Source of the DNA: Escherichia coli
GTDB taxonomy: Bacteria > Pseudomonadota > Gammaproteobacteria > Enterobacterales > Enterobacteriaceae
Length of the DNA stretch: 64,000 nt
Assembly: GCF_003334385.1 (NCBI RefSeq)
Contig: NZ_QOWN01000009.1
Direction: 5' to 3' (one strand)
This document shows positions 29,408-29,637 of this stretch, piece by piece. A program made the position numbers and the translations under genes. How positions within the stretch are numbered: position 1 is the first letter of the stretch; each line of letters starts with the position of its first letter. The notes below the pieces were generated by a model. That model was not told where the DNA came from and did no database searches. It saw nothing but the letters and a program-made list of their open reading frames with translations.

Positions 29408-29500
29408 ATGAGCAATCTGTAGAGTTTGATTCAGACCTTCTATATTTTCCCGCTTATCCGTGCCCCATCTCCCATTTTCCCTCACCCACGCCGTCACCGC

Positions 29501-29520
29501 CTTGTCATCTTTCTGACACC
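29501..29520 (+). promoter_or_regulatory. Putative Pho box (PhoB site) in the ugpB promoter region
   Basis: cttgtcatctttctgacacc resembles the CTGTCAT-N4-CTGTCAC Pho box, about 120 bp upstream of ugpB; ugp is a known Pho-regulon operon. Exact promoter geometry not verified. Confidence 0.5.
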
Positions 29521-29637
29521 TTACTATCTTACAAATGTAACAAAAAAGTTATTTTTCTGTAATTCGAGCATGTCATGTTACCCCGCGAGCATAAAACGCG
29601 TGAATTCGCGCATTCGGTACAACAAGAGAGATAAACG

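Follow-up and report, generated by a model that had tools for sequence, protein, structure and literature searches.

The regulatory region of the Escherichia coli ugpBAECQ operon was reportedly described by Kasahara et al. 1991, and the upstream promoter is said there to be one that 'overlaps the upstream third pho box'. In the literature the operon has two promoters, an upstream one of the cAMP-CRP type and a downstream one with multiple Pho boxes. Inhibition by PhoB~P has been suggested for the overlapping alternative promoter, and the output of a ugpB reporter drops at high PhoB~P. Binding of PhoB at ugpB has been detected by ChIP-seq and likewise by ChIP-chip. Three studies have named three different boxes as the ugpB PhoB site: ChIP-seq with MEME gave the motif TGTCATCTTTCTGACACC (PMC10294691), a ChIP-chip study gave a site at -105.5 from the ATG and a Salmonella study gave one at -72 from the ATG, and these are referred to below as boxes 3, 2 and 1 respectively. 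The ChIP score of ugpB is 35, second in the genome to pstS with 38, and the centre of its peak is at position 3592453 in NC_000913.3 (PMC10294691). In the same work ugpB RNA was 19-fold lower in a phoB deletion (2,830) than in the wild type (54,461), and occupancy by RNA polymerase at ugpB was also higher in the wild type than in the phoB deletion. Furthermore, Park et al. 2013 (PMC3798270; Tables S1, S3, S4 and S6) found an ArcA ChIP peak and a three-repeat site, ATGTAACAAAAAAGTTATTTTTCTGTAATTCG, at ugpB. This 32-bp site was placed at '-2 to 30' relative to a mapped start, and expression of ugpBAECQ was 8.2-fold higher in an arcA mutant than in the wild type.

The DNA analysed here, which we call the window, is a stretch of 64,000 nucleotides from an E. 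coli contig (NZ_QOWN01000009.1). The livF-ugpB intergenic region occupies 29240-29637, between the end of livF at 29239 and the start of ugpB at 29638, with ugpA and ugpE coming after ugpB. Over the 461 bases around the flagged box the identity to E. coli K-12 MG1655 is 100%. An earlier note on this DNA had called 29495-29637 the ugpB promoter and had pointed to cttgtcatctttctgacacc as a Pho-box-like repeat in keeping with phosphate-starvation control of ugp, proposing a PhoB matrix scan and a comparison with mapped promoters as checks. This span is the promoter-proximal portion of the intergenic region and was found to hold the Pho boxes, the -10 elements and the mapped start, so that its description as the promoter is borne out. 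The flagged string occupies 29501-29520 of the + strand and precedes the ugpB ATG by 118-137 nt. As the ATG corresponds to 3592325 on the minus strand of NC_000913.3, the centre of the ChIP-seq peak falls at window position 29510, within the flagged box. The published motif is identical to 29503-29520 and ugpB RNA depends on PhoB; the PhoB reading of the flagged sequence is therefore experimentally established in the literature. We are highly confident that the flagged site is the already published PhoB site of a model locus and that its interpretation as such is supported. The features of the region are collected in Table 1.

Table 1. Features of the ugpB control region in window coordinates; scores in bits refer to the PhoB half-site model.
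Feature	Start	End	Strand	Sequence	Remarks
CRP-like core	29459	29474	+	CGTGCCCCATCTCCCA	centred at -70.5 from G29537; candidate cAMP-CRP site
Half-site	29492	29498	+	CGTCACC	6.2 bits, above the window 99th percentile; extra upstream half-site in the register of the array
Pho box 3	29502	29519	+	TTGTCAT-CTTT-CTGACAC	distal, top-scoring PhoB dimer site; MEME register 29503-29520, TGTCATCTTTCTGACACC
P1 -35	29502	29507	+	TTGTCA	within the first half of box 3; -35 to -30 relative to G29537
Half-site	29503		+	TGTCATC	8.6 bits
Half-site	29514		+	TGACACC	5.4 bits
Pho box 2	29524	29541	+	CTATCTTACAAATGTAAC	upstream half degenerate, downstream half strong
P1 -10	29525	29530	+	TATCTT	coincides with the degenerate first half of box 2; at -12 to -7 from G29537
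Half-site	29525		+	TATCTTA	-0.4 bits
ArcA site	29535	29566	+	ATGTAACAAAAAAGTTATTTTTCTGTAATTCG	three direct repeats; overlaps Pho half-sites 2b, 1a and 1b
Half-site	29536		+	TGTAACA	8.8 bits
P1 mapped start	29537	29537	+	G	carbon-starvation, CRP-type promoter; derived from the numbering of the ArcA study
Pho box 1	29546	29563	+	AAGTTATTTTTCTGTAAT	promoter-proximal; replaces the -35 of the PhoB-dependent promoter P2
Half-site	29547		+	AGTTATT	-1.1 bits
Half-site	29558		+	TGTAATT	6.6 bits
P2 extended -10	29571	29579	+	TGtCATGTT	kept at a fixed distance from box 1
Predicted PhoB-dependent start	29585	29588	+		6-9 nt past the -10; from the conserved extended -10
Ribosome-binding region	29624	29631	+	AAGAGAGA	purine-rich, ahead of the ugpB ATG; sequence inspection
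ugpB CDS	29638	30954	+		sn-glycerol-3-phosphate ABC transporter binding protein; ORF list and RefSeq annotation of the identical K-12 sequence

Box 3 consists of direct CTGTCAT-like repeats with a period of 11 bp, that is, a 7-bp repeat and a 4-bp spacer, and its two halves match the CTGTCAT repeat at 6/7 and 5/7 positions. A PhoB position weight matrix was built from the 58 other ChIP-seq motifs in Table 1 of Fitzgerald et al. 2023 (PMC10294691), with ugpB omitted, and was used to scan both strands of the whole 64-kb window. The site at 29503-29520 scored 15.6 bits and ranked third. Both of the higher-ranked sites, at 21010 upstream of rpoH and at 47610 at glgB, are members of the training set, and the flagged box is the best site in the window outside it. 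Random sequence of 64 kb would contain 0.29 matches of this strength on average, and the single box taken by its sequence alone is therefore suggestive, being modestly significant and not compelling. Each of its half-sites scores above the 99th percentile of the window (3.8 bits). The other two sites are also published PhoB ChIP-seq motifs, TTTCATCTCTATGTCACA (21010-21027) and GGTCAAAAAAATGTCACA (47610-47627); their ChIP scores are low (2 and 5 respectively) and the source table gives no PhoB-dependent expression change for them.

The surroundings of the box are more informative than the box itself. Three tandem Pho boxes, forming seven half-sites at 11-bp spacing, were observed between 29492 and 29564, and the half-sites at 29492 and 29503 also pair to form a 12-bit dimer site. 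The scores of the seven half-sites sum to 34.1 bits; phased sums in 200 random 64-kb sequences reached 14.6 bits at most, and the next unrelated phased sum in the real window was at most 2 bits. Positive score in the array stretch is confined to a single register, with 35.6 bits in that register versus at most 1.6 bits in any other. It is the array context, rather than the lone box, which is decisive for the Pho-box identity. We consider it very probable that the flagged sequence is the distal and strongest of the three tandem PhoB dimer sites in the ugpBAECQ control region.

The position of the boxes relative to the -10 elements was compared with that in the phoA, phoB, pstS, phnC and phoH promoters, taken from NC_000913.3. 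In all five, 9 bp separate the proximal box (in the MEME register) from a downstream -10-like hexamer (TATAGT, CATAAT, TATTTT, CACGAT and GAAACT respectively). The same arrangement was found at ugpB for box 1, where AGTTATTTTTCTGTAATT (29547-64) is followed by 9 bp and the hexamer CATGTT (29574-79), with a TG at 29571-72; the canonical gap of 9 or 10 bp between box and -10 occurs at ugpB for box 1 only. Box 3 ends 54 bp before the P2 -10 and is located 44 bp, or four 11-bp steps, upstream of box 1. An activating box stands in for the -35, with 9-10 bp between its end and the -10; box 1 is placed in this way and box 3 is not. Box 3 is an auxiliary upstream box and does not replace a -35. The comparison with mapped promoters brought out no conflict of spacing, as the flagged box is in phase with the array, and it refines the earlier claim: the flagged box is the distal third box, separate from the box that sets the -10 geometry.

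Conservation of these elements was examined in relatives. Contigs representing one genome per species were searched with a degenerate DNA pattern encoding the UgpB peptide FWHxMEGELG, which gave 120 loci, almost all from the Enterobacterales. At least 330 nt of upstream sequence was available for 108 of these loci; the window was added, and gap-free anchoring on box 1 was possible for 93 sequences. From Escherichia to Yersinia, Pantoea and Pectobacterium, box 1 in these sequences reads (A/G)GTTATTTTTCTGTCAT with hardly any variation. The element TGnCATGTT, which is outside the anchor pattern, was observed nine bases past box 1 in 89 of the 93 sequences; the variable position is T in 83 of these and either G or C in the other 6. 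In the four sequences left over, the TG is kept and one base of the hexamer differs. This pattern of conservation fits an extended -10 over an eighth PhoB half-site. TGTCATG at 29571 was considered as such a half-site and rejected, being located 13 bp and not 11 bp from the previous half-site, with a third base that varies in six sequences where the TG and CATGTT are kept. The P2 start predicted from the extended -10 would be near 29586, giving a leader of about 52 nt. The Cappable-seq, Conway 2014 and Kim 2012 start-site tables hold no entry for ugpB or for the predicted coordinates.

The half-sites differ widely in their conservation when frequencies are weighted by genus (37 genera). Strong half-sites were observed at the equivalents of 29525, 29536 and 29558 in 82%, 95% and 99% of genera respectively, the first of these being a strong TGTCAY, whereas the positions of box 3 at 29503 and 29514 carry good half-sites in merely 25% and 11% of genera. 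Boxes 2 and 1 together with TGnCATGTT are conserved across the 37 genera. In the register of box 3 the three E. coli sequences score 15.3 bits, whereas none of the other 16 sequences which carry P1, described below, exceeds 6 bits. In relatives a distal site does exist, shifted by one half-site or weak; for example, the best distal site in Salmonella is the equivalent of the pair formed by 29492 and 29503. The ancestral core thus appears to consist of boxes 2 and 1, while a strong box 3 appears to be a feature of Escherichia. It is not conserved outside that genus, and PhoB control of ugp would therefore in general not require it.

The upstream half of box 1 at 29547-29553, (A/G)GTTATT, was observed to be invariant in the 93 sequences, yet it scores below zero on the PhoB half-site model. 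In the published ArcA site the same bases serve as the middle one of the three repeats. It seems to be this particular sequence, off consensus as it is, that is under selection.

In addition to P2, a scan for sigma-70 promoters found TTGTCA-17-TATCTT at 29502-29530. The 32-bp ArcA site corresponds to window positions 29535-29566, and its published numbering therefore places +1 at G29537, which these hexamers fit exactly. This promoter P1, with its -35 in box 3, fits the upstream cAMP-CRP promoter of the literature, its suggested inhibition by PhoB~P and the drop in reporter output at high PhoB~P. Further upstream, the core CGTGCCCCATCTCCCA has three mismatches to TGTGA-N6-TCACA and retains all four key G/C positions. 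It was found at the identical offset, with the key G/C positions kept, in all 19 sequences carrying TTGnCA-17-TATCTT, although these belong to one clade and so count as one evolutionary event with later conservation and not as 19 independent cases. Among the other 74 sequences, searched within 4 bp on either side of this offset, a comparable CRP-like match was observed in two, neither of them at the E. coli offset. A scan for CRP cores over all 64 kb gave 160 matches versus 202 expected, which is no excess, and the core is informative only together with its conservation. Class I CRP promoters have their site near -61.5 or -71.5; with the candidate core at -70.5, P1 would be a putative promoter of this class. 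We infer that 29459-74 is the cAMP-CRP site of P1.

The P1 module and the CRP-like site were found to co-occur only in Escherichia, Salmonella, the Citrobacter freundii group, Kluyvera, Pseudocitrobacter, Pseudenterobacter and Pluralibacter gergoviae. Box 2 averages 5.9 bits in this P1-bearing group versus 14.8 bits in other Enterobacterales. The array of most Enterobacterales consists of two good boxes, with four half-sites, and TGnCATGTT. One proposal, to which we give even weight for and against, is that P1 arose as a lineage-specific insertion into an older PhoB array. In that event the upstream half of box 2 would have become TATCTT, with TTGnCA and the CRP-like site alongside, and box 2 would have fallen from about 15 to about 6 bits; the strong box 3 of E. 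coli could then offset the weak box 2 and let PhoB silence P1.

The overlap of box 3 with P1 allows two other readings of the flagged sequence. Box 3 could be the activating box itself, with PhoB bound there recruiting polymerase to TATCTT and 29537 serving as the phosphate-starvation start. This would account for its position as the top-scoring box beneath the ChIP-seq summit, for TATCTT being directly downstream and for the start mapped at 29537. However, box 3 ends 4-5 bp before TATCTT versus 9-10 bp at the five other PhoB promoters, and a start at 29537 driven by box 3 would leave boxes 2 and 1 downstream of it. Moreover, TTGnCA-17-TATCTT is limited to one clade, where it is paired with a CRP-like site, whereas box 1 with TGnCATGTT is universal. 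We consider it very unlikely that box 3 has this activating function.

The likeness to a Pho box might also be incidental, the sequence being merely the -35 region of a sigma-70/CRP promoter or a CRP palindrome, TGTCA-N6-TGACA. TTGTCA does match the -35 consensus at 5/6 positions with a 17-bp spacer to TATCTT, and box 3 contains a perfect inverted repeat with two mismatches to the CRP core. Both of these mismatches, however, are at the G/C position which CRP reads in each half, and a better-placed CRP-like element is present at -70.5. PhoB is also known to occupy box 3 in vivo under phosphate limitation, with the ChIP-seq summit on the box, and box 3 is in exact 11-bp register with six more half-sites. 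A role as -35 and a role as Pho box can in any case coexist in the same bases. Of the readings considered, an incidental likeness is the most improbable and we give it hardly any credence. The inverted repeat itself extends over 29503-29518 and results from an A at the Pho-consensus T of the second half-site; in our sample it was found solely in the E. coli sequences.

Taking box 3 as the distal member of a PhoB array, the following sequence of events can be proposed. In phosphate starvation PhoB~P would fill the array at 29492-29564. Box 3 probably acts as the high-affinity entry, where PhoB~P would load first and so ease the filling of boxes 2 and 1, which are weaker. The dimer on box 1, in the place of a -35, would then recruit sigma-70 RNA polymerase to TGnCATGTT, and transcription from P2 would begin near 29586. 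At the same time PhoB on box 3 would cover the P1 -35 and shut off the start at G29537, which in carbon starvation may be activated by CRP acting as a class I activator from -70.5. In this way the operon would swap its carbon-starvation promoter for its phosphate-starvation promoter. The occupancy of box 3 by PhoB, the dependence of ugpB on PhoB, the register of the half-sites, the upstream start and the ArcA site, on which this scheme builds, are established by the present analysis or by published work; what is proposed is that PhoB loads cooperatively from box 3, that it switches promoters by occluding the P1 -35, that P2 starts near 29586 and that CRP binds at -70.5.

Two further blocks of the intergenic region were noted. 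The leader block CGCGAGCATAAAACGCGTGAATTCGCGCAT (29584-29613) is conserved in sequence across the Enterobacteriaceae and Erwiniaceae, and at the ribosome-binding region AAGAGAGAT is common to Enterobacteriaceae leaders. An RNA element in the block was considered and rejected, as the consensus fold has only 3 pairs and -0.23 kcal/mol and the E. coli sequence gives z = +0.78 versus shuffles. The block could be a protein operator or reflect a constraint on the initially transcribed region. A literature search for regulation of the ugpB mRNA returned no result. Between the livF stop and the ugp control region, two REP/BIME-type palindromic units were observed at 29290-29405, and these account for the multiple matches of the 461-base query, whose median number is 11 per E. 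coli genome. Rfam gave only sub-threshold hits to the REP-derived naRNA4, and these come from the two units.

The site belongs to a textbook member of the Pho regulon and its importance beyond annotation is slight; according to the literature the ugpB promoter is already in use as a phosphate-controlled part in bioprocess strains. The box-by-box map explains how three studies came to name three different ugpB Pho boxes, and it shows PhoB, CRP and ArcA sharing 110 bp of DNA. The sole mildly new point comes from the comparison of species, in which an older PhoB promoter with two boxes seems to have gained P1 and the strong box 3 in particular lineages.

When compared with known systems, the closest is the E. 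coli ugpBAECQ region itself, since the locus and the element are the same and the ChIP-seq motif (PMC10294691) is 29503-29520. The two-promoter layout of the literature, with Pho boxes downstream and a cAMP-CRP promoter upstream, also matches this locus. The pstS promoter resembles ugp in having adjacent Pho boxes (two in number) in a 22-bp register, with the proximal box 9 bp (MEME register) from the -10. It differs in that both of its boxes are near consensus and its -10, TATTTT, has no TG extension. At ugp, by contrast, there are three boxes, those numbered 1 and 2 with weak upstream halves, the -10 is extended, and a second promoter is nested within the array. The phoA and phoB promoters share the spacing between box and -10, and the phoB hexamer CATAAT resembles the CATGTT of ugp, but a single box suffices in these promoters and the flagged ugp box is located 44 bp upstream of the activating position. 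Lastly, psiE is similar to ugp in that phosphate and carbon signals, through PhoB and cAMP-CRP, meet at one control region, a likeness which is drawn here from a statement in the literature only.
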